IMG/VR virus record: IMGVR_UViG_3300022746_000010
Coordinates: 1-37,912 of that record
Source of the DNA: a virus
Direction: 5' to 3' (one strand)
Length of the DNA: 37,912 nucleotides
Shown: positions 212 through 37,912 of the stretch, one piece after another
Layout of the letters: each line of letters opens with the position of its first letter
Position numbering within the stretch: position 1 is the stretch's first letter
The notes under the pieces: generated by a model
Database searches by the model: none
Told to the model about the DNA's origin: nothing
The model's input: only the letters and a program-made list of their open reading frames with translations
Position numbers and translations under genes: made by a program

Positions 212-2110
212 TTACCAGTTCGTGACGAATGAATTGCGCTTTTTCGGGATTATAGGCTTCGCAGGTTTGACCGCCAATTCAGCGGCATTTTCACCGTCTT
301 TCACGGGTTTCAATTTTAATGCCCGTTCGAACTGTTCCCAGATCGTGCGCCGGTTGAACCGCATGTAAAGCGACTGCATCGCGGCATAGGCATACACCGC
401 CGTGTCCAGCGCTTCGTTGCGCGCGCCTGGTTTCTTCACCCACTCGCGCACGGGGAAGCCCTTCACGTACTTGGTGATCTGCTTTTCAGCCGTCAGCTGC
501 GCGAAATACTCGGCGGTCAGTTCAGCGTGAAAGTGAACGTACCCAGCGCCTGGTTCGTTGTGCTTCAGGCGCGAATAAATCACCGACTTCACGGTGTCGA
601 CGCCCACCGGCCAGACTTCGGCGCTGCCCTTCATCACCTTGCCCTTCCAGTTCAGGTCGACGCGGCTGGGCTTTCCGATGGCCGGTTTGCCGCGCTGCGA
701 CTGGCCTTTGATCGCGTAGTAGTGCTTCGACCGGCGTTCGCGCGCGTAGGCATAGACGTCATGGGTGTGGTGGCCACCACTGTCGATGCAGGCCGCCATC
801 ACGGTCAGCGGTTCGGCCAGTTCGTGCTCGATGGGCGTGCCCAGCATGTCGTCCAGCTGGCGCCAGACTTCGGGCCGCGCTGGGTCGCCGTAGATTTCCT
901 GGTGCGCCACGGCCCAGCATTCTTCATCGCGGCCCCACCCGTACAGTGACACGGCCAGGCGGTTGTCCTGCACGTCCACGCCAGCGGTGACGGCCAGCAC
1001 GCGGGCTGGCAGCACCTTCGGGTCGTAGAACTCGGCGCGCGCCTGCAGGCTGTCGGCCCCGACCTTCGCCGAATATTCTTCTTCCCAGGTTTCGCCTAGG
1101 ACCGTGTTCACCCAGCCCTTCAGCAGCGGTGCGTCGCCCTTGGCCGCGATGAATTCTTCGACGATGGAACGCCAGGACTTCCAGCCCAGCGGTGAATACA
1201 GCGACGACAGGTGGAAGCCTGCGATGCGGCCATTGCCTTCGGCCGTAGCGCGCCATTCGCCCTTGGCCAGCATGCTGGTCTTGTGGCGTTCCTCGATCAG
1301 CGTGCCGCAGTCTTCGCAGGCGTAGGCTGCCGTCGTCGGGTCGTCGTCCTGCCACTTGATCTGCGCCCAGCGCAGCCACTGCATGTGGTCGCAGTGCGGG
1401 CAGGGGACGAAATAGCGCCGCTGGTCGGACACGTTAAATTCGCGCTCGATGCGGCTGACGTCCTTCACCGTCGGCGTGCTGCACATGAAAATCTTGCGCC
1501 GCGCGAACGTGGTGGTCCGTCGGATCGCCAGGATGACGGGGTCGCCTTCGCCATCGACGTCGACAGGGAAACCGTCGATTTCGTCCAGGAACAGGTAACG
1601 CACCGGCATCGAACGCAGGCCGACCGCGCTGTTCGCGCCGGTGACAACCAGAACACCGCCCTGGAATTCCTTCACCAGCTGCGTGTTGCCGCCATCGCGT
1701 GAACGCTGGTCCGCGATGCGTTCTTTCAGCATCGGGGTTTCTTCCATCATCGGCGCCAGGCGCTGCTTGGAAAATCGCTTTGCCGTGTCGACCGTCGGCT
1801 GCACCAGCATCATGGGGCCTGGTGCGTGGCTGATCACGAAGCCCAGCCAGTTGTTGCCGGTTTCGGACTTGCCCACCTGGGCGCCAGCCATGAACACCAC
1901 CTGTTCGACAGGGCTGTTCGGCGACAGTTCGTCCATGATCTCGCGCAGGTACGGCGTGCGCTCGGTGCGCCAGCGGCCAGGTTCAGCCGACGCCTTTTGC
2001 GACAGCATGCGGAATTCGTCCGACCACTCGCTGACGGTGAAGTCGGGGTCGGGTGTCAGTCCAGCGCGAAACGCCTGGCGGTATAAAAACGAACCGTCAG
2101 GCTGCACCAT
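212..2110 (-). CDS. terL: Terminase large subunit, lambda GpA family
   Basis: 632 aa. GpA-type N-terminal pattern (TVSEWSDEF, PGRWRTERTPYLREIMD) and a Walker A-like MAGAQVGKSE. It overlaps terS by 14 nt. One gene (gpW-like) separates it from the portal gene. Confidence 0.93.
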   Translation of the reverse strand: MVQPDGSFLYRQAFRAGLTPDPDFTVSEWSDEFRMLSQKASAEPGRWRTERTPYLREIMDELSPNSPVEQVVFMAGAQVGKSETGNNWLGFVISHAPGPMMLVQPTVDTAKRFSKQRLAPMMEETPMLKERIADQRSRDGGNTQLVKEFQGGVLVVTGANSAVGLRSMPVRYLFLDEIDGFPVDVDGEGDPVILAIRRTTTFARRKIFMCSTPTVKDVSRIEREFNVSDQRRYFVPCPHCDHMQWLRWAQIKWQDDDPTTAAYACEDCGTLIEERHKTSMLAKGEWRATAEGNGRIAGFHLSSLYSPLGWKSWRSIVEEFIAAKGDAPLLKGWVNTVLGETWEEEYSAKVGADSLQARAEFYDPKVLPARVLAVTAGVDVQDNRLAVSLYGWGRDEECWAVAHQEIYGDPARPEVWRQLDDMLGTPIEHELAEPLTVMAACIDSGGHHTHDVYAYARERRSKHYYAIKGQSQRGKPAIGKPSRVDLNWKGKVMKGSAEVWPVGVDTVKSVIYSRLKHNEPGAGYVHFHAELTAEYFAQLTAEKQITKYVKGFPVREWVKKPGARNEALDTAVYAYAAMQSLYMRFNRRTIWEQFERALKLKPVKDGENAAELAVKPAKPIIPKKRNSFVTNW

Positions 2111-2612
2111 CTTCAGCCCCCAGCGCGCTTTCCAATGCCTTGCGGATTTCCTCGGTCAGACGCCGGTGGATCACGAAGTTGTCGGTCTGGCCGGTTAGTT
2201 CTGCAGCCACGCGGTCGGGGATGTTCAGCATGCCGTCGCGGATCATGCGCGCGACCTTGAACGCCTCTTTCTTCACAGCTTCGGCGTCGACCAGGGTGCC
2301 AGCTTTCTGTTCGTACTCGAGACGCGAAAGTTCAGCCTGATATTGCTCTTTCTTCGCCCTGCTTGCGGCGTAGGTCGCGGCCTCGCCTTCGATGCCAGCG
2401 TCGCCAAGCATCATGCGGTTGTTGTGTTCGCCACGGTCGATGCTGGTCGTGGCTGCCCATTCCTGGTCGGCCAGGTCCACGTCGATCTTGAAAGCCTTGC
2501 CGTCACGCGTGACCGACTTCGTCAGTCGACCGTCGCGGATTGCTTGCAGCACGGCAGGCTTGCTGACGCCACGGTGTGTGGCGTACTTGGCAGCCGAAAT
2601 GAAGTTCCCCAT
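2097..2612 (-). CDS. terS: Terminase small subunit (Nu1-like architecture)
   Basis: 171 aa. N-terminal HTH (AAKYATHRGVSKPAVLQAIRDGRL) followed by a coiled coil. It lies directly upstream of terL and overlaps it. Confidence 0.7.
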   Translation of the reverse strand: MGNFISAAKYATHRGVSKPAVLQAIRDGRLTKSVTRDGKAFKIDVDLADQEWAATTSIDRGEHNNRMMLGDAGIEGEAATYAASRAKKEQYQAELSRLEYEQKAGTLVDAEAVKKEAFKVARMIRDGMLNIPDRVAAELTGQTDNFVIHRRLTEEIRKALESALGAEDGAA

Positions 2613-14886: not shown

Positions 14887-15075
14887 ATGTCTGAATATCT
14901 CACACCAAACGAACTCGCCGCCCGCTACAAAGGCGCGATCACCGTGCGCACGCTGGCCAACTGGCGCAGCACCGGCCACGGCCCGCGCTTCACCAAAATC
15001 GGCGGGCGCGTCCTGTACCCAGTCGAAGCCGTCAACACTTGGGAGAAAAGCCGCACCAAGACTGATGCGGCGTGA
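14887..15075 (+). CDS. xis: Excisionase-type HTH_17 (AlpA/Xis-like) DNA-binding protein
   Basis: 62 aa. Pattern: LTPNELAARYKGAITVRTLANWRSTGHGPRFTKIGGRVLYPVEAVNTWE. AAGGGAAGGA lies upstream. Confidence 0.75.
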   Translation: MSEYLTPNELAARYKGAITVRTLANWRSTGHGPRFTKIGGRVLYPVEAVNTWEKSRTKTDAA

Positions 15076-15083
15076 TCTGCAGT

Positions 15084-15116
15084 GACCGGCTGGGTTCGCC
15101 TGGCCGGTCTTTTTTT
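15084..15116 (+). terminator. Intrinsic terminator after xis
   Basis: 11-bp stem GACCGGCTGG/CCTGGCCGGTC with a TTCG tetraloop, followed by 7 T. Confidence 0.85.
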
Positions 15117-15414: not shown

Positions 15415-16629
15415 ATGCTAAGTGCCCGCCAGGTCAATGCCGCGCTGAAGTCAAAAAAGCCCGAGATTGTGCTGAACGATGGCGCCGCTGGTCGCGGCAC
15501 TGGCAGCCTGCAGCTGGTCGTTCGTCACAATGATGGCCGCACGTCGGCCACCTGGTTCGGCGCCTGGTACGTCGACGGGAAGCTGCGCAAAAAGTCGCTG
15601 GGCCGGTGTCCCGATCTGCCGCTGGTGAAGGCCCGCAGGCTGTACGAAACCCAGGTGCGTGACGCCCTGGCCGAAGGTCGTGACCCGCGCGCCCTGGCCA
15701 TCGAACAGGCCGACGCCACCGTCGAACGGATGTTCCAGGGGTACGTGGCCCACATGCGCCAGCAGGGGCGCAGCAGCGCCGCTGAAGTCGAACTGCAGCT
15801 GCTGACGGGTAAGAACAACGCAGCCGACAAGCTGGGGCGCCAGCGCCTGGTGCCCACAATCACGCCGAACGAAATTTCGGTTCTGCTTGGCCGGATTTAC
15901 GACCGTGGCGCCAGGTCGATGGCCGACCACATGCGGGCCTATCTGTCGGCAGCGTTCAACTGGGCGGCAGCCGCGACGCATGACTATCGTGCCAAAGACC
16001 GCCAGGACTGGGGTCTGAAGTCGAACCCCGTGGACGTGGTGCCCAAGGACAGCGGCGCGTCCAAACCTCGCGAACGTAACCTGTCGGCGGCTGAAATCCG
16101 CGCGCTGTGGCGCGACCTGGATGGCCCAGGCTTTGATCTTGAAACCGCAGCAGCCATTCGCGTGCTGCTGTCGTGCGGGCAGCGCGTGCGCGAAACCCTG
16201 CGCATCGAACGTGGCGAAGTCGACCTGGCTGCGATGGCCTGGGTGATGCCTGCTGAAAAGACGAAAACGAAGCGGGCGCAACACGAAGTCCCACTGCCGC
16301 CACAGGCTGTGCGTGTGCTGCGCCTGCTGATGGCCACCAGGAAAGGTGCCCAGCTGTTCACCATCCAAGACACGTCGATCAATCGGGCGCTGCGTCGGTG
16401 GGCTGAACGCGAAGGTGTCGAACCGTTCCAGACGCGTGACCTGCGCCGGACGTGGAAATCGCGGGCAGGGGACGCAGGCGTCGACCGCTTCACGCGCGAT
16501 CTGATCCAGCAGCATGCCAAGGTCAGCGACACGGGGTCCAAGCATTACGACCACACCGACTACCGGCCACAGCTGCGCCAGGCGATGGCACGCTGGGCCT
16601 GGTGGCTGCGCCGCACGGTGCGGGGTTAG
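15415..16629 (+). CDS. int: Tyrosine integrase, P4-type (DUF4102 arm-binding N-domain)
   Basis: 404 aa. N-terminal: LSARQV...LNDG...GSLQLVV...WFGAWYVDGKLRKKSLG. Catalytic region: GQRVRET, RDLRRTWKS, QQHAKV...SKHY. The usual HxLRRT box reads RDLRRT. Confidence 0.92.
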   Translation: MLSARQVNAALKSKKPEIVLNDGAAGRGTGSLQLVVRHNDGRTSATWFGAWYVDGKLRKKSLGRCPDLPLVKARRLYETQVRDALAEGRDPRALAIEQADATVERMFQGYVAHMRQQGRSSAAEVELQLLTGKNNAADKLGRQRLVPTITPNEISVLLGRIYDRGARSMADHMRAYLSAAFNWAAAATHDYRAKDRQDWGLKSNPVDVVPKDSGASKPRERNLSAAEIRALWRDLDGPGFDLETAAAIRVLLSCGQRVRETLRIERGEVDLAAMAWVMPAEKTKTKRAQHEVPLPPQAVRVLRLLMATRKGAQLFTIQDTSINRALRRWAEREGVEPFQTRDLRRTWKSRAGDAGVDRFTRDLIQQHAKVSDTGSKHYDHTDYRPQLRQAMARWAWWLRRTVRG

Positions 16630-16818
16630 AATTCGCGCACACCAAGACTGCTGTGGTTTGAATGGTTCACGCGGTTGCCGCCGTAAGGTTTGCGCTGCCT
16701 CTGGTAAATCCACCACAGACCACAGCCGTGTTGGTGAAAGCAGATTCCGAACCCGACTTGCATTCGCTTATGGCAGCCTGTCCTTCGGTGCAGTGAGTAG
16801 CCAACACCCCACGCCATC

Positions 16819-30610: not shown

Positions 30611-31287
30611 TCAGTCTTTGGAGTTGATGATCTGCAGCGCGGTCACTTCCATGACCTGCAAGTCGGCCAGCATTTCGCGCTGGTTCTCGACACCTTCGAT
30701 TTTAAACAAGAACTCGATGGACTGGTAATTCAGGCCGACCACGCCGCCCATGCTTGTCAGCCATTGCGTCTGCAGGCGCATGAACATGGCCACCACCGGC
30801 CAGTTTTCTTCGTGGACTTCGAAGTCGCGACTAGGGCTTGAATCCTGAACGGCGACGACGATGTCCGATGATGCACCCATCACGGCCAAGTCGTCGGCCA
30901 TTTCGTCTTTGACGCCGCCACCTGCCCAGTGGCGTGCGGCGTCTTCTAGTTTTTTCGCTTTGCGCCGGTGAGAGAATTCATCCAAGCCATCACGACAGCA
31001 GACGCCACCAGTGGCACGTCCAGCAGCTGGTCGCGGGTGCCTTCAGCGAACGGCACAGCGTCGCCATTGGCATCGGTGACACCAGCCCAGCCGGTCAGCA
31101 CTTCACGCGCCAGGTCAATGTCGGTGATGTCGCCGCTTTCAATCTTCGCTTTGATCTCGGCCATGCGCGACTGGGGCACGCGCTTGAACTCAGCGTCGAA
31201 CGTCTGTTTCTCGCTCTTGCCACCGTCGACTGGGAATTCGACGGCGACCGGCCAGGTGTATGAAGTCTTTTGTGAAATTACGAACAT
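30611..31287 (-). CDS. Predicted -1 frameshift fusion of the tail assembly chaperones (GT-like, about 225 aa)
   Basis: The downstream ORF (DUF1799-like: ENWPVVAMFMRLQTQW...GLNYQSIEFLF) is open in the -1 frame from 30985. The slip site lies just before the G stop. Confidence 0.6.
30946..31287 (-). CDS. Tail assembly chaperone (gpG-like)
   Basis: 113 aa, located between the tail tube and tape measure genes. Confidence 0.7.
   Translation of the reverse strand: MFVISQKTSYTWPVAVEFPVDGGKSEKQTFDAEFKRVPQSRMAEIKAKIESGDITDIDLAREVLTGWAGVTDANGDAVPFAEGTRDQLLDVPLVASAVVMAWMNSLTGAKRKN
30949..30955 (-). other. Slippery heptamer A_AAA_AAC for -1 programmed frameshifting
   Basis: Minus strand reads GCA AAG CGA AAA AAC TAG. 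The -1 frame continues AAA AAA CTA GAA GAC (..KK LED..). Confidence 0.6.
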
Positions 31288-32876: not shown

Positions 32877-33148
32877 GTCTTACTCAAGAAAATCTGTGCG
32901 AACAGGCCGTCGTCAATTAGACGGCATTCGCGCACGGTGTACGCGGCGCCATTGATGGTCAGCGCGTCGCCGTATTTTTTAGAACCGAACTCGCTGGCCA
33001 AAATGGTCAGCGTGTAGTCGGTGGTCAACACCATGCCGCCTGCGATGATTTCCGAAGGCATGTCCAGCACGCCTTTGCCCGTCACCGTTCCGTCGGTAAC
33101 AGGGACACCGAAATCATTCAAAAAGACGGCAGGGCTTTCGGTAATCAC
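32873..33148 (-). CDS. Head-tail joining protein (gpFII / Phage_attach-like pattern)
   Basis: 91 aa. Pattern: FLNDFGVPV....G.GVLD.........TL....EF......GD.LTING..YTV.E...IDDG. Confidence 0.55.
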   Translation of the reverse strand: MITESPAVFLNDFGVPVTDGTVTGKGVLDMPSEIIAGGMVLTTDYTLTILASEFGSKKYGDALTINGAAYTVRECRLIDDGLFAQIFLSKT

Positions 33149-33324
33149 TTGGCTTCGTCGCCTGCTGGTTCGGTTTGCTTGGCAGCCTTCTTGGGCTTCT
33201 CTGCGGGTTCGATGGCGTTTGCGTAGGCTTCGGCCTGGTCTTCATCCAAGTCGACAACGTCGCCGCTGTGGAACACGTCTTTGCCGATCTTCACGGCGAA
33301 TTGGTCGCGAACGATGAACTTCAT
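33145..33324 (-). CDS. Small hypothetical protein (59 aa)
   Basis: Hand-translated: MKFIVRDQFAVKIGKDVFHSGDVVDLDEDQAEAYANAIEPAEKPKKAAKQTEPAGDEAK. GTGA overlap with the next gene. The SD is weak. Confidence 0.4.
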   Translation of the reverse strand: MKFIVRDQFAVKIGKDVFHSGDVVDLDEDQAEAYANAIEPAEKPKKAAKQTEPAGDEAK

Positions 33325-33344
33325 GTTTTGCTTTCGGGGTGGCT

Positions 33345-33373
33345 AGGGAAAAGGGGCGGCACTGCCGCCCCTT
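33345..33373 (-). terminator. Strong hairpin just downstream of the capsid gene (partial terminator or RNA stabiliser)
   Basis: Minus strand reads AAGGGGCGGC-AGT-GCCGCCCCTT followed by TTCCCT. The T-run is short. Confidence 0.55.
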
Positions 33374-33387
33374 CACTCACCTGCTGA

Positions 33388-35397
33388 TTAGGCAGTCAAT
33401 GCGTCAGTCATTGCAGAGAACGACTTGGCGTGGCGCAAGCCCATGTCAACAGACTGCAAGGCGCGGATGTCCACGCTGCCGTTGTTGTAGCCAGAACCGT
33501 ATGGGTTAGGCAGGACTTCCAAAACGCCCCACTCGCCGATGATCAATTCAGACCAGTTGCCGAACAAGACAGCAGACGCGACGCCGGAGGCGGTGCCCTT
33601 TGTCAATGTGCTAGACACTTGGTTCGAACGACCGAAGGTGTAGCCGTTGATCTCGCCAGGGGTGCCAGAACGCTGGCCGCCTGGGTAGTCGGTCCACAGG
33701 TACTGGCCGGTGGTCGACTTGAGTTTCTTCAAGGCGCCGACGACTTTGCTGTTCGACAAGTAGGCCAGGTTGCCTTCGTCCGCGTTGGCTGTGGTCACTT
33801 GGGTTTCCAAGTCGATCAGGTGGTCAATGGTGATGGCTGCACCGTTGGTGCCGCCAGCCACAGAACCGATGCCGCTGGTGTTCAAAATGCCAGTGGGCTG
33901 ACCGTTTGAACCAGTGCCTGCGATAGCTGCCAAGTCGATGGCCAAGGCCAACTGTGCTGCCAAGTCGCTGCGAACGATCATTTCGATGTCCGGTGTCGAC
34001 TGCATCATCATGTTGCGGGTCATCTGGCTGCGTGCGCCAACAGTCTTGGGCGACAAGCTGAGTTTGTCGAAGGCTGCTTCGGCTTCAGTCACGTCTGCAC
34101 CTTCCGACACCCAGTAGGTGGTGGTGGCGCTGGTTTGACGTGGGATGTCCACGTTGCCGACCAAGCCGGACAACATGCGGGCGCCCAACTGAACCACGCG
34201 GGCCTTGTTGCGCAACACTTCGATGAACTCGGAAGCCAACAAGTTGGTGGCCACCAAGGTGCCGCCAGTAGTGCCAGAACCGGCTGTACCGACAGCGTAG
34301 GCGCCAGACGATGCGTTTCGCATGCTGATGTTCATTGGCATGAAGAAACCGGCGGTGTCTTTGCCGCTGCGCTTGGCGATGGCTTCGGAACATGCACGCT
34401 CGAAACCGGCATCTTTCCAGTTGCCAGTCACTTGGGCGCGGATGGCGCGAACCAGGCTGTACTCTTGCTTTTCCTTGTCAGTCAAAGGCAGATCGGATGC
34501 GCCTTCGGTGACAGGGGTGCGCTTTGCGTCGGCGATCTTGTCCAAGAAAGCGGCGCGGGCTTCGTCGATAGAACGGCCACCTTCGACCAAGCTGCGTGCC
34601 AGGTCTTCGTTGCCGAACTTTTTGCCCAAGGCGTCGATGGTTGCGATGCGTGCGCGCTCGGCTGCAATAGCCTCGCCCTGCACGAGTTTGATGTCAACGG
34701 CTGGTGCAGCCGCAGTGTTTTCTTGCGTCATTGTGACCTCTGGAGGATTTGCTGCGGCAGCAGCGGGTTGGTGATCACGACGTACAAGTACGTCGCGTTC
34801 TTCCGCAGTCACAGACCGACCGACACCGATGGACGGGTCGGCTGGCACTGTAACCAGCGAAATTTCGTAAGGCGTCCAACTGGTCGCCGTATATGTGGGG
34901 ATGTCCGATTTTGCGTCGGTGATGTCCATTTCGTTCACGCGGTAGCCGAACGACACGTTCCGCATGATCTTGTCGTTCACCATGCCCATGCACTCGTCGG
35001 CCTGGGGCGTGTTCGCGAAACGCACGGTACACATGCCGCGCTTCGTCTTCGTGTCGATGCTGGCTTTCTCGATCACGCCGATGATGTCGTCCATGTTGTG
35101 GTTGAACAGCAGCGGGGCGCCATCGTTCAAGCGCGACAAGTCGGCAGCGCCAGCGGCGTGCGACAGCACTTCGTTGCCGAACCAGCGTTCGACGGGGTAT
35201 TCGCTGCTGAAGCTGAACGACAGCGTGCGGGTGTCCTGGTCGACCGCCAGGTCGCCTTCGGACATCGCGCGCACCAGCTGCGGCAGCTTAAAGCGCAGCT
35301 GGCCGTCCACCTCGGTGAACTCCACTTCGCGCTTGGCTTCAGGCGTGGCTTCGACAGGTTTTGCCTGCCACGGCATTGCGTGTGCTTGTTTTGTCAT
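33388..35397 (-). CDS. Prohead serine protease (S78/HK97 gp4-like) - linker - HK97-fold major capsid protein, as a single ORF
   Basis: 669 aa. Protease motifs LLFNHNMDDIIGV and NVSFGYRV. An Ala-rich/coiled linker follows. Capsid region: LVRAIRA...GFFMP... and LAIDLAAIAGTGSNGQPTGILN. Confidence 0.9.
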   Translation of the reverse strand: MTKQAHAMPWQAKPVEATPEAKREVEFTEVDGQLRFKLPQLVRAMSEGDLAVDQDTRTLSFSFSSEYPVERWFGNEVLSHAAGAADLSRLNDGAPLLFNHNMDDIIGVIEKASIDTKTKRGMCTVRFANTPQADECMGMVNDKIMRNVSFGYRVNEMDITDAKSDIPTYTATSWTPYEISLVTVPADPSIGVGRSVTAEERDVLVRRDHQPAAAAANPPEVTMTQENTAAAPAVDIKLVQGEAIAAERARIATIDALGKKFGNEDLARSLVEGGRSIDEARAAFLDKIADAKRTPVTEGASDLPLTDKEKQEYSLVRAIRAQVTGNWKDAGFERACSEAIAKRSGKDTAGFFMPMNISMRNASSGAYAVGTAGSGTTGGTLVATNLLASEFIEVLRNKARVVQLGARMLSGLVGNVDIPRQTSATTTYWVSEGADVTEAEAAFDKLSLSPKTVGARSQMTRNMMMQSTPDIEMIVRSDLAAQLALAIDLAAIAGTGSNGQPTGILNTSGIGSVAGGTNGAAITIDHLIDLETQVTTANADEGNLAYLSNSKVVGALKKLKSTTGQYLWTDYPGGQRSGTPGEINGYTFGRSNQVSSTLTKGTASGVASAVLFGNWSELIIGEWGVLEVLPNPYGSGYNNGSVDIRALQSVDMGLRHAKSFSAMTDALTA

Positions 35398-35401
35398 GGG
35401 C

Positions 35402-35788
35402 TTATTGTAGCTGTTCGATGAAGTAAATCGTGTCGTCGATGAACGAAGTCGCTTCGTCGATCAGGTTCTGGATTTCAGAACGCTGGTCGACTTCGGTGCG
35501 GGTTTCGTCCACGAACGCCAGCAGTGCGGCCAGGAATTCCAGCACCGCTTCTTTGCTGCCGTCTTGTGGCGGGTTCACATAGCCATCAGGATAGCCGACG
35601 ATGATCTGTCGATTGCGGCCCTGCCACGTTTCGGCGATGCTGTCGGCCTTGTCGATGATGCCTTTGTAGAAATCATCCAGCGCTTTGTGGCGCGCGAAGC
35701 TGCCGACACCCTGGCACTGCAGGTGCAGCACATGGGCTGCCGTGCCTGCGTGCATCAGCGTGATGATTAGTTTTGCAATAGCTTCCAT
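35402..35788 (-). CDS. Dps-like mini-ferritin (four-helix-bundle pattern with conserved ferroxidase ligands)
   Basis: 128 aa. H22-x11-H34-x14-D49-x3-E53 reproduces the E. coli Dps H51/H63/D78/E82 spacing. DKADSIAE matches DHLDTMAE, and C-terminal IYFIEQ matches LWFIES. Confidence 0.7.
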   Translation of the reverse strand: MEAIAKLIITLMHAGTAAHVLHLQCQGVGSFARHKALDDFYKGIIDKADSIAETWQGRNRQIIVGYPDGYVNPPQDGSKEAVLEFLAALLAFVDETRTEVDQRSEIQNLIDEATSFIDDTIYFIEQLQ

Positions 35789-35797
35789 ATGGCGCGG

Positions 35798-35826
35798 ATT
35801 ATCAGGTCAGTGAATCAACTGGTCAA
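35798..35826 (-). promoter_or_regulatory. Sigma70-like promoter candidate in front of the Dps-like gene
   Basis: Minus strand reads TTGACC, a 17-nt spacer, then GATAAT. The -10 ends 9 nt before the ATG and there is no SD, so the mRNA would be near-leaderless. Confidence 0.4.
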
Positions 35827-35842
35827 ATTGTAAGCCGTGAAC

Positions 35843-37429
35843 TTAGGTGGCATCCGATGATGCGTCGGCACTTTCGTCTTCGGCTGGCGCTGCTGCTGCG
35901 TCGTCGGTTGCGTCACCAGGCGCAGCTTCTTCGGCTGCGACAGCAGGCGCCACAGTTGCCTGCAGCTGCCCCTTGTCGTCGACCTGCGCCGTGTCGGTGT
36001 CGAACACCAGGCCCATGCCTTCGGCCATTTCGACTTCGCGCCGACGTTGCTCGAGCACTTCCTCGATGTCGCCGCCAGACTGGGCGATCACTTCGGACTG
36101 GGTCATAAAACCGCAGCGCACCGCGTCTTTGTAAGCGGCCACTTCTTTCGCGGGGTCCACCCACGACCAGCCGCGCGGCATCCAGCGCACAGCGCGGTAG
36201 GCGTCGGGGTTGATCTCATAGCCTGGCAGGTCCAACGCGCCAGACAAAACGGCCATGTCCAGCCATTCCTCGAAAACGCGCTGGTGGAAATTCTGGATCA
36301 TCCAGGCTTGCAGTGAACGCCAGTTGTCGCGGTCGTCCAACAAGGCCAGTCGGCTGCTGCTGTAGTTCGACTGCGAATAGTCCTTGCTCAGTGTCTCATA
36401 CGAAACACCCACGCCAGCGGCCACGGCACGCAGCTGGGCGCGCACGAACGGGTCGTAATTGCCGCCAGGACGGTTCGGCACGAATTCCTTGAATGTCTCG
36501 CCAGGGCCAAGCGCTTCGATCTTGCCTGGGCTGAAATCCGAAACGCGCTGGTTGTCCTGCACACCGTCGTCTTGCAGTTCGCCGTCGGGCGTCTGGATGA
36601 AACCCATGATCGACGCACTGGCGCGCGCGGCCACGACTTCGGCTTCTTCGAAACCGGCCACCTGGTGCATGCGCTTCAGCGCAGACGCGAACCACGGCAC
36701 GCCACGGGTCTGGCCTGGGCGTTCATGCTTGTAAAGGTGGATGATCTCGTCGGCGTCGACGCGCTTGTACTTCGACAGTTCGACCGTTTTGAAAAGGTAA
36801 TCGCCTGGATGGTACGGGTAAAACCAGTATGCGACCGGACGGCCCCATTCGTTCTTCTCGACACCCATGCGGATGATGTTGCCATTGTCGGCAGTGCCGT
36901 TGCGCTCGTCCATCAGCTGGTCGGATTCGATCACTTCCAGCGCCAGCGGCACGGGTGACGTGCCGAACGCAGTGCCACGCACCATGCGCACCAGCACTTC
37001 GCCGTTTTCGGCAGCCGATGTGATCAGCAAGCGCTCGATGTCGCTGAAATTCAGCAGGCCAGCGGTGTGGCAGTTCTGCGCCTTGCACCACTGTGCCCAG
37101 GCGTTTTCGATGGCTTCGTTCACGGCCTGGTTCATCACCTTGCCGTTGCGCTGGCGGGTCATCTTGACCTGCATTTGCATGTTCACGCCAGTGCCGATCA
37201 CGTTGTTCTGGATCGCGCGCAGTGCGTTCTTCACCCAGTCGTTGTCACGCGCCAGCTGGCGGGTTCGGTTGCGCAACACGCGCAAGCTGCTGCGAATTTC
37301 GCTGTCCTGGCTGGTGCCGATGCTGGCGTTCCAGTCGTTGGTCAAGCGGTTGAACGTCGCGCCGCCGAACATGCGTTTGCCAGCCTTCTTGGGCTGGTCG
37401 CCCTTTTTGCCGAATGGCCAAAATTTCAT
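35843..37429 (-). CDS. Portal protein, lambda (gpB) family
   Basis: 528 aa. N-terminal pattern: NRLTNDWNAS...LRVLRNRTRQLARDNDWVKNALRAIQNNVIGTGV. AAGGGGC-AACC-ATG start. Acidic C-terminal tail. Confidence 0.92.
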   Translation of the reverse strand: MKFWPFGKKGDQPKKAGKRMFGGATFNRLTNDWNASIGTSQDSEIRSSLRVLRNRTRQLARDNDWVKNALRAIQNNVIGTGVNMQMQVKMTRQRNGKVMNQAVNEAIENAWAQWCKAQNCHTAGLLNFSDIERLLITSAAENGEVLVRMVRGTAFGTSPVPLALEVIESDQLMDERNGTADNGNIIRMGVEKNEWGRPVAYWFYPYHPGDYLFKTVELSKYKRVDADEIIHLYKHERPGQTRGVPWFASALKRMHQVAGFEEAEVVAARASASIMGFIQTPDGELQDDGVQDNQRVSDFSPGKIEALGPGETFKEFVPNRPGGNYDPFVRAQLRAVAAGVGVSYETLSKDYSQSNYSSSRLALLDDRDNWRSLQAWMIQNFHQRVFEEWLDMAVLSGALDLPGYEINPDAYRAVRWMPRGWSWVDPAKEVAAYKDAVRCGFMTQSEVIAQSGGDIEEVLEQRRREVEMAEGMGLVFDTDTAQVDDKGQLQATVAPAVAAEEAAPGDATDDAAAAPAEDESADASSDAT

Positions 37430-37438
37430 GGTTGCCCC

Positions 37439-37912
37439 TTAAAAACGCACGTAAAGCGCGCGCGGATTGCCCAAGCCTTGCGCGATTTTCTGCGCCTGGC
37501 GTTCACGCACCACGATGGTTTTGTAGCGCGACTGCATTTCCAACAGGTCGCGCATGGGCGTTTTCTTCAGTGAACGGTTGCCGATTGTGTATTCCTCGGA
37601 CATGCCGCCATTCAGTCGGGCGGTGATCTCGGCATTGATCGCGTCCAGCGCGATCTCGGACGGTGTGCGGCCATCGAACGCGCCAGGCGTGCCGGTGAAC
37701 GCCATGTCCGCGATGATTTTGATCTGACCAGTGCCGATGGTGATGCGCTGGGTGCCCTTGGTCACGCTGGCCTGCCAGTAGAACTGGCCAGGTGTCAGCG
37801 TTGCGGACTGTGCGGCGGTGATCGTGGTCGACCAGCCTGGACCGTTGGCCGAAGCCACCAGGTCAAGCGCCTGCGCGCCGCGAATGAAGTAATGCAGCGC
37901 CCAGTCTGCGCT
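37439..37912 (-). CDS. C-terminal part of the wrap-around gpW-like gene (see 1..208)
   Basis: The C-terminal NGGMSEEYTIGNRSLKKTPMRDLLEMQSRYKTIVVRE resembles the gpW head-tail joining family. The frame is open to the window edge. Confidence 0.65.
   Translation of the reverse strand, partial: SADWALHYFIRGAQALDLVASANGPGWSTTITAAQSATLTPGQFYWQASVTKGTQRITIGTGQIKIIADMAFTGTPGAFDGRTPSEIALDAINAEITARLNGGMSEEYTIGNRSLKKTPMRDLLEMQSRYKTIVVRERQAQKIAQGLGNPRALYVRF
37792..37912. repeat. Terminal direct repeat, right copy (identical to 1..121)
   Basis: Read directly from the sequence. Confidence 0.95.

Follow-up and report, generated by a model that had tools for sequence, protein, structure and literature searches.

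A predicted Dps-like protein of tailed phages encoded between the portal and protease-capsid genes

Introduction

Dps proteins and ferritins are the textbook iron-detoxification proteins of cells, and some Dps proteins also bind DNA, which E. coli Dps does through a Lys-rich N-terminal tail; Dps assembles as hollow dodecamers of 23 symmetry, in which iron is oxidized and stored. In head assembly, the prohead proteases of HK97, T4, lambda and the herpesviruses are packaged into procapsids, and those of lambda (C/Nu3) and the herpesviruses carry a scaffold part at their C-terminus. Here we analyzed a 128-amino-acid (aa) open reading frame (ORF), termed mini-Dps below, that lies between the portal gene and a fused protease-capsid gene of IMG/VR virus record IMGVR_UViG_3300022746_000010 (positions 1 to 37,912, i.e., the whole stretch analyzed, hereafter the window). 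The original prediction, made from the nucleotide letters and the ORF translations, read this gene as a small Dps with all four ferroxidase ligands behind its own promoter-like element, and offered lysogenic conversion, protection of DNA during packaging, or a co-opted capsid-internal or decoration role as its possible functions. The reading that we favor, with modest confidence, is that the product is a phage-specific mini-Dps that would bind and oxidize iron at inter-subunit sites, would be made together with the capsid protein and would protect DNA during head filling.

Results

The gene is located on the minus strand of the window and starts at the first possible start codon of its ORF in the ORF list:

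35402..35788, minus strand: mini-Dps gene (DUF5856 / PHROG 858), recognized by its 128-aa ORF, family matches, AlphaFold2 fold and ligand conservation

Its product matches Pfam DUF5856 over residues 22-122 (61.8 bits against a cutoff of 34.6; 1.3e-16) and PHROG 858 over residues 2-127 (2.5e-19). An exhaustive HMMER search for the DUF5856 family returned 2,149 cluster representatives (50% identity clusters) at E <= 1e-3, and the DUF5856 consensus sequence matched 1,170 of 50,697 phage records by tblastn, including T2, T6, RB3, RB16, Vi01/CBA120-like phages and the Klebsiella Jiaodaviruses. The RB16 member carries the T-even gene name rI.-1, and gp103 of Klebsiella phage Mineola, which adjoins rI, keeps all ligands and gives 1.8e-22 against the family profile. 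A profile scan of genome contigs for the family returned three distant loci only. Judged by these sequence matches, the family is large and mostly phage-borne and the window gene is not an orphan; the homologues and their conservation also rule out a chance ORF. No NCBIfam or PADLOC model matches the window mini-Dps and, therefore, there is no sign of a known defense or anti-defense system. We found no literature on DUF5856, or on Dps-like domains occurring with phage prohead proteases, other than annotation-level mentions or proteomic lists.

The putative metal ligands of the window protein are H22, H34, D49 and E53, plus H19. Based on 149 diverse representatives taken from the 50%-identity clusters, which were used for all residue counts reported here, the first four are invariant (149/149), as they are in 22 close homologues, so the ligand conservation on which the original prediction hinged is indeed present. 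H19 (147/149), Y41 (148/149), R97, N108, D111 and Y122 are near-invariant across the family, and the window protein has every residue of the DUF5856/PHROG 858 invariant set (H19, H22, H34, Y41, D49, E53, R97, N108, D111, Y122). Profile and HH alignments place H22/H34/D38/D49/E53 onto E. coli Dps H51/H63/D67/D78/E82, which agrees with the correspondence of H22, H34, D49 and E53 to H51, H63, D78 and E82 that had been drawn by eye, and the D-x-x-D-x-x-A-E motif named at the same time can be read in the ORF as D46-x-x-D49-x-x-A52-E53.

AlphaFold2, provided with an alignment of 83 diverse family members, models the window protein as a four-helix bundle (predicted local distance difference test score, pLDDT, 96.5) with helices A 2-23, B 30-59, C 79-97 and D 104-126, i.e., the fold that the original prediction had called for. 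Helix A begins at residue 2, so that the DNA-binding N-terminal tail is missing as claimed, and the C-terminal end lies 2 residues past helix D. Foldseek comparison against the PDB gave only Dps proteins among the best 50 matches (query-normalized template modeling scores, TM, of 0.59-0.78). Similarly, a family profile built from 83 diverse members for comparison with the PDB matched S. aureus Dps (2d5k; 2.2e-4) and H. pylori NAP (3.5e-4) with the His-His-Asp-Glu columns aligned, nearly all of the best profile matches being Dps proteins. The C-terminus reads ...TIYFIEQLQ, and the proposed match of its IYFIEQ to LWFIES of E. coli Dps stands only in the sense that the fold match places the two at an equivalent helix D end; no sequence alignment recovers it. 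That is, the relationship to Dps rests on fold and ligand pattern, overall sequence similarity being weak, and the modeling supports a Dps-like four-helix bundle that retains the ferroxidase ligands and has no N-terminal tail.

H34 and D49 share a helix, on which 15 residues separate them, so that a site built from all four ligands is impossible inside a single monomer. The joint invariance of the ligands thus suggests a Dps-type two-fold dimer, across which H22/H34 and D49/E53 would meet to form two inter-subunit di-metal sites of the ferroxidase type. Metal binding, oligomeric state and ferroxidase activity are what we infer from these residues; the most likely activity would be Fe(II) binding and oxidation, which would limit Fenton damage to phage DNA during replication, packaging and perhaps storage.

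Database names suggest a different function, i.e., that of a DNA-binding protein or transcription regulator: PHROG 858 and IMG entries are called "starvation-inducible transcriptional regulator" and "DNA-binding ferritin-like protein", and DNA binding is known for some Dps proteins. The window protein is strongly acidic (isoelectric point, pI, 4.6; 20 Asp+Glu vs. 10 Lys+Arg), as are most short members of the DUF5856 family (pI <6 in 92% of 194), it lacks the Lys-rich tail of E. coli Dps, and a Pfam scan detected no DNA-binding domain. The acidity and the missing tail make these labels doubtful, and the names appear to have been inherited from Dps (PexB) annotation. Hence, we consider a DNA-binding or regulatory role very improbable.

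The surroundings of the gene, all on the same strand, are as follows:

35843..37429, minus strand: lambda-family portal, 528 aa, the upstream neighbor (Pfam Phage_portal_2, 2.4e-108)
35789..35842, minus strand: spacer of 54 nucleotides (nt) from the portal stop to the mini-Dps ATG, read in the sequence as having no Shine-Dalgarno motif
35395..35404, minus strand: junction TAA-GCCC-ATG, i.e., mini-Dps stop, 4 nt and protease-capsid start, conserved in relatives and a probable translational-coupling site
33388..35397, minus strand: S78 prohead protease fused to an HK97-type major capsid protein, 669 aa, the downstream gene (Pfam Peptidase_S78 and Phage_capsid, PHROG 617, NCBIfam protease/MCP fusion)

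In the closest relatives (57-93% identity), mini-Dps is always immediately upstream of the protease-capsid gene, and some of these relatives have three to six accessory genes between the portal and mini-Dps. The insertions in L003 (3022-5915) and L004 (2615-5960), which lie between the portal and the mini-Dps promoter, carry Pfam Gp80, Gp77, DUF7936 and unknowns; the portal-to-mini-Dps interval looks like a gene-insertion hot spot. The gene directly follows a lambda-type portal in the window and in L010, L011, L013, L018 and L019, an SU10-type portal in L014, L015 and L035, and a T7-type portal in L009; one small gene separates it from a T7-type portal in L023, L028, L032 and L038, where the protease comes just after it. 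With P22-type portals, mini-Dps lies about 1 kb after the portal, ahead of the capsid gene, in L090; it comes right behind the capsid gene in L068 and L084-L087; and in L092 it is flanked by the portal and an uncharacterized 693-aa ORF that lies downstream of the terminase. Thus, mini-Dps follows portals of four unrelated families, an arrangement newly found here. Within 4 kb of mini-Dps, at least 31 of 99 loci contain a gene for a portal, a capsid protein or a prohead protease, a count that is a lower bound because it covers detected relatives of a few seed proteins only.

The position between portal and protease-capsid genes is unusual for this head type, as had been claimed, in that these two genes are adjacent in the cultured phages VP882 of Vibrio and Mica of Burkholderia, which share the head module (capsid identity of 36-39%). 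The comparison of gene order that was proposed to follow therefore came out in two ways: the head-module position recurs among relatives, and the gene is missing from these two phages, which makes it accessory and not needed for assembly. As a separate observation, an ORF of 960-1140 aa without Pfam or PHROG match ends about 10 nt before mini-Dps in 12 viral contigs:

L047 543-3917, L051 2566-5988, L054, L060, L062, L063, L065, L080-L082, L088 and L089: upstream ORF of 960-1140 aa (incomplete at the contig end in L080 and L089)

The mini-Dps domain also occurs fused to prohead proteases, which has been newly found here. The domain forms the extreme C-terminus in 146 of the 149 representatives, and 16 of the 149 have an N-terminal domain of at least 100 aa. 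One such domain is a Peptidase_S49 of the lambda gpC type (P0099), and at least nine fusions involve DUF2213/PHROG 760 (P0028, P0044, P0049, P0052, P0055, P0093, P0106, P0123, P0161). The P0123 fusion is present on 7 contigs and the P0028 fusion on 11 contigs, independently, and this recurrence indicates that the fusions are real; that of P0028 is located inside a head module, after a Mu F-like protein. In the AlphaFold model of P0044 (pLDDT 88.5), a fold search gave the T4 gp21 prohead protease and the herpesvirus assemblins as the best match of the N-terminal domain and Dps as a match of the C-terminal domain, from which DUF2213 is, by its modeled fold, a prohead protease. Consistent with these findings, a viral structure library holds "prohead protease" entries of 333-763 aa that contain the mini-Dps fold. 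Since prohead proteases are packaged, the protease of these phages would bring its fused domain into the procapsid with it, at least for as long as it is uncleaved. Two further proteins, P0166 (270 aa) and P0131 (336 aa), have an N-terminal PHROG 3041/395 "cytidyltransferase" domain fused to mini-Dps.

The position of the gene and these fusions bear on a second alternative, namely that mini-Dps is a purely structural head protein (scaffold-like, core or decoration) whose conserved residues form a structural metal site or none. Mini-Dps occupies, after the portal, a place usually taken by scaffold or protease genes, and the protease C-terminus to which the domain is fused is the site of the scaffold part in lambda C/Nu3 and the herpesviruses. 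P0161 (1029 aa) unites a DUF2213 protease, the mini-Dps domain (221-333) and then about 700 aa of charged repeats, which are Ala/Lys/Glu/His-rich (e.g., TSDEERKAAFAHMNDGGSDTQAAKAGS...) and look scaffold-like. Coupling to the capsid gene (below) would imply a high copy number, and one Kuttervirus homologue, gp085c of Salmonella phage GEC_vB_GOT (L105 4001-4354), is labeled "putative structural protein", a label whose basis we could not trace. However, the absolute conservation of exactly the Dps ferroxidase ligands points to metal chemistry, VP882 and Mica build the same capsid type without the gene, large virulent phages have it outside the head module, and the region between the protease and capsid domains of the fused capsid protein could itself, judging from the domain positions, serve as scaffold. 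An essential scaffold, in particular, was rejected, given that the portal and protease-capsid module of VP882 and Mica is the same and does not include mini-Dps. The invariance of the ligands, and the fact that this capsid type can be built without the gene, make a purely structural role less likely, and we regard it as improbable.

The spacer upstream of mini-Dps contains a promoter-like element:

35798..35826, minus strand: sigma-70-type promoter-like element, -35 TTGACC (35826-35821), 17-nt spacer, -10 GATAAT (35803-35798), recognized by sequence and conservation

The -10 hexamer ends 9 nt before the mini-Dps ATG, as the original prediction stated, and the 54-nt length of the portal-to-ATG spacer and the absence of a visible Shine-Dalgarno motif in it were also read correctly. 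The pattern TTGAC-N17-19-ATAAT occurs once in the 37.9-kb window vs. 0.05 occurrences expected, whereas a looser promoter scan of 33000-37912 gave 1 site vs. 0.9 expected, which alone is not significant. Five lineages, namely the window, L100, L102, L004 and L010, have retained both hexamers, all with TTGACC (TTGACG in L004), 17-18 nt, GATAAT and 8-10 nt to the ATG, while the promoter spacer is only 33% identical among them and the third codon positions of mini-Dps are 54-73% identical. Conservation of the hexamers against a diverged spacer places the element beyond chance, and this sequence pattern is very probably a functional, if putative, promoter. The transcript would be expected to start 0-3 nt before the mini-Dps ATG (35788-35791); the short distance and the absent Shine-Dalgarno motif thus suggest a leaderless or nearly leaderless mRNA. 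In L004, the promoter comes after the inserted accessory genes and, therefore, it travels with the mini-Dps and capsid pair and not with the portal. The AAGGGGA motif, which was said to precede most other starts checked by hand, is found at two or three of them and not at most.

Between the mini-Dps stop and the protease-capsid gene there are 4 nt and no terminator, as described originally, and no Shine-Dalgarno motif is visible before the protease-capsid ATG either. This TAA, 4 nt, ATG junction is common to the window, L100, L102, L004 and L010; in L011 and L013 the two genes overlap by ATGA, and in L003 the ATG follows the TGA stop by 2 nt. The equivalent protease-capsid gene of the cultured relative Mica has an annotated ribosome-binding site. 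A conserved junction of this kind without a Shine-Dalgarno motif suggests that the capsid gene is translated by reinitiating ribosomes, i.e., that a ribosome finishing mini-Dps probably reinitiates 4 nt later, and mini-Dps would then be made late and at least as abundantly as the capsid protein, in comparable amounts. Hence, of the independent, near-leaderless expression that had been proposed, the conserved promoter of its own and the absence of a Shine-Dalgarno motif stand, and the independence does not fit the tight joining to the capsid gene. Mini-Dps would head a message that has a minimal leader or none, and it looks like the first cistron of the capsid message and not like a stand-alone moron.

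This arrangement has to be weighed against lysogenic conversion, according to which mini-Dps is a moron that is expressed in the prophage from its own promoter and adds to the protection of the host from oxidative or iron stress, in the manner of host Dps. The conserved sigma-70-type promoter directly upstream, the tyrosine integrase at 15415-16626 (+), the slightly low G+C content of the gene (55.6% vs. 59.3% for the genome), the absence of the gene from cultured relatives with this head type and the gathering of accessory genes in the portal-to-capsid interval of L003 and L004 speak for this reading. The neighbors of the gene have 59-61% G+C, but the tail tube gene, with 56.7%, comes close to mini-Dps. 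Morons are marked by a promoter and a terminator of their own, however, and here the promoter-like element is present and the terminator is absent, so that a prophage transcript would also encode the capsid protein 4 nt downstream. Further, in L011, L013, L018 and L019 mini-Dps overlaps its portal neighbor as well as its capsid neighbor, and no separate promoter precedes it. Family members abound in phages that are strictly virulent, T-even-like phages and Kuttervirus among them, and fusions of the domain to prohead proteases occur. For these reasons (the missing terminator, the coupling to the capsid gene, the virulent phages and the fusions), lysogenic conversion is unlikely and the least favored of the three roles suggested originally, and DNA protection or a capsid-internal role would, on the combined analysis, fit better.

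Published proteomic lists provide leads, not proof, of virion association. The Jiaodavirus protein gp108/100, which is annotated as a "starvation-inducible transcriptional regulator", was represented by 26/27 spectra in cesium chloride (CsCl)-purified virions of two Klebsiella phages, comparable to neck and baseplate proteins (PMC13119998), and in Jiaodavirus genomes we find this label on the rI-adjacent DUF5856 gene. The ferritin-like gp346 of phage G was detected in particle proteomics (PMC12484599), and the Dps-domain CDS67 of SU10 in phage preparations (PMC4281155).

The window begins and ends with the same 121 nt (1-121 and 37792-37912), which indicates a complete circular phage genome of about 37.8 kb, and the terminase genes (212-2612, minus strand) precede the head-tail joining and portal genes across the circular junction. 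The genome encodes a large terminase, primase-helicase, endolysin, Rz, J-like tail tip, tape measure and tail tube, and a gene set that includes the following gene makes it a temperate, lambda-like siphophage:

15415-16626, plus strand: tyrosine integrase (Phage_integrase, Arm-DNA-bind_3), by family matches

The integrase is antisense to a slightly longer 421-aa ORF (15451-16716, minus strand) without family matches, and a strong facing terminator pair at 15050-15109 may be near attP. Two overlapping ORFs (30611-30985 and 30946-31287, minus strand) lie just upstream of the tape-measure gene; their equivalents in relatives carry DUF1799, and their arrangement is reminiscent of the tail-chaperone pair G/GT of lambda, in which a programmed frameshift is used. 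In one relative (L004 10452-10952; L005 4824-5324), the tail tube and tail chaperone genes are separated by an inserted HNH_3/AP2 homing-endonuclease-like gene, which the window lacks. We also considered that mini-Dps might supply iron to HxH-type iron-binding tail fibers or spike tips, and rejected this idea for this phage since the fiber, J-like and tape-measure proteins of the window have no HxH motif.

Discussion

We favor the hypothesis that mini-Dps is a metal-handling protein made together with the capsid protein. Its post-portal position and the protease C-terminal fusions suggest that the assembling head is where it acts or is taken in. There it would serve as an accessory that protects phage DNA while the head fills, perhaps from within; association with the capsid is possible. 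Several points weigh against this hypothesis. With respect to the gene, about half of the sampled loci have no recognizable head gene nearby, T-even-like phages and Kuttervirus have the family gene among early or middle genes, outside the head module, VP882 and Mica do without it altogether, and the promoter is constitutive-looking in a temperate phage, so that expression in the lysogen is possible. All three proteomic data sets also contain clearly non-structural proteins (PMC13119998, PMC12484599, PMC4281155). With respect to the protein, the window sequence scores 18.1 bits against Pfam Ferritin (PF00210), under the 24.5 gathering cutoff, so that the profile match expected by the original prediction came from DUF5856/PHROG 858 and, through the family profile, from PDB Dps entries, and not from the Ferritin family. 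Further, hhalign of the family profile against a single E. coli Dps sequence, one in agreement with the PDB alignment, gave 6.5% probability with the ligand region alone aligned; the short BC helix of Dps is not predicted by AlphaFold2; and the Trp that follows the first His in Dps (E. coli W52) corresponds to L23 in the window, with Leu at this place in 132 of the 149 representatives and Trp in 4. Finally, we found no biochemical or structural study of any DUF5856 member in the literature.

The potential importance of the finding lies in its breadth. A mini-Dps that is spread across thousands of phage lineages, T-even phages included, with perfectly conserved ligands and no published function that we could find represents a sizeable blind spot. 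The post-portal placement and the protease fusions lead to a testable idea, i.e., that phage heads may carry or use an iron-oxidizing protein, and family members are available in tractable model phages (T2, T6, RB16, CBA120 and the Klebsiella Jiaodaviruses). If true, the idea would bear on phage DNA protection, on virion stability in iron-rich or oxidizing settings and on an evolutionary link between phage capsids and encapsulins. A conserved leaderless-type promoter that apparently feeds translation of the major capsid protein would, moreover, be an unusual mode of capsid expression.

Compared with bacterial Dps (E. coli Dps, Listeria Dps, H. pylori NAP), the window protein shares the four-helix topology and has H/H/D/D/E at equivalent positions with spacings of +12, +4, +11 and +4, a ligand layout that likewise requires an inter-subunit site. 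It differs in being 20-40 residues shorter, without the N-terminal tail and the predicted BC helix, in having an additional His (H19, at the place of K48 in E. coli Dps; 147/149 family representatives) and Tyr41 (148/149), and in being phage-encoded, linked to head genes and under the Pfam Ferritin cutoff. Relative to other DUF5856/PHROG 858 members, the T-even rI.-1 included, its length (about 118-128 aa), acidity and free C-terminus are shared, whereas an insertion of about 10 aa in the B-C loop (PDGYVNPPQDG) distinguishes it, as does its place in a head module; the T-even-like member adjoins rI and tk, and the Kuttervirus member is near a primase gene. The fused relatives resemble lambda gpC/Nu3 and the herpesvirus protease-scaffold polyproteins in combining a protease with a C-terminal module that would enter the procapsid. 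However, that module is a Dps-like metal-site domain and not a coiled-coil scaffold, and in the window mini-Dps is a separate gene that precedes the protease instead of following it.

The closest parallel in arrangement is with encapsulin iron-storage systems: the window likewise has a ferritin-superfamily gene immediately upstream (4 nt) of an HK97-fold capsid gene, and in other phages the mini-Dps domain is, similar to encapsulin cargo, tethered to a packaged protein, the prohead protease. Unlike encapsulin cargo, mini-Dps has no C-terminal targeting peptide, the domain itself ending at the C-terminus in 146/149 representatives; its fold is Dps-like and not the two-helix EncFtn, which is not among the top PDB matches; and the window shell belongs to a complete tailed phage with portal and DNA, for which encapsidation is possible. 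Extending the parallel, many tailed phages might load a Dps-like ferroxidase into their procapsids, free or tethered to the protease, so that an HK97 shell encloses an iron-oxidizing cargo, a proposal that we put forward as speculative and rather unlikely. If it is true, phages would have a hitherto unrecognized means to shield their DNA, packaged or ejected, against Fenton chemistry, and DUF5856 would be the phage counterpart, and possibly the evolutionary forerunner, of encapsulated ferritins.

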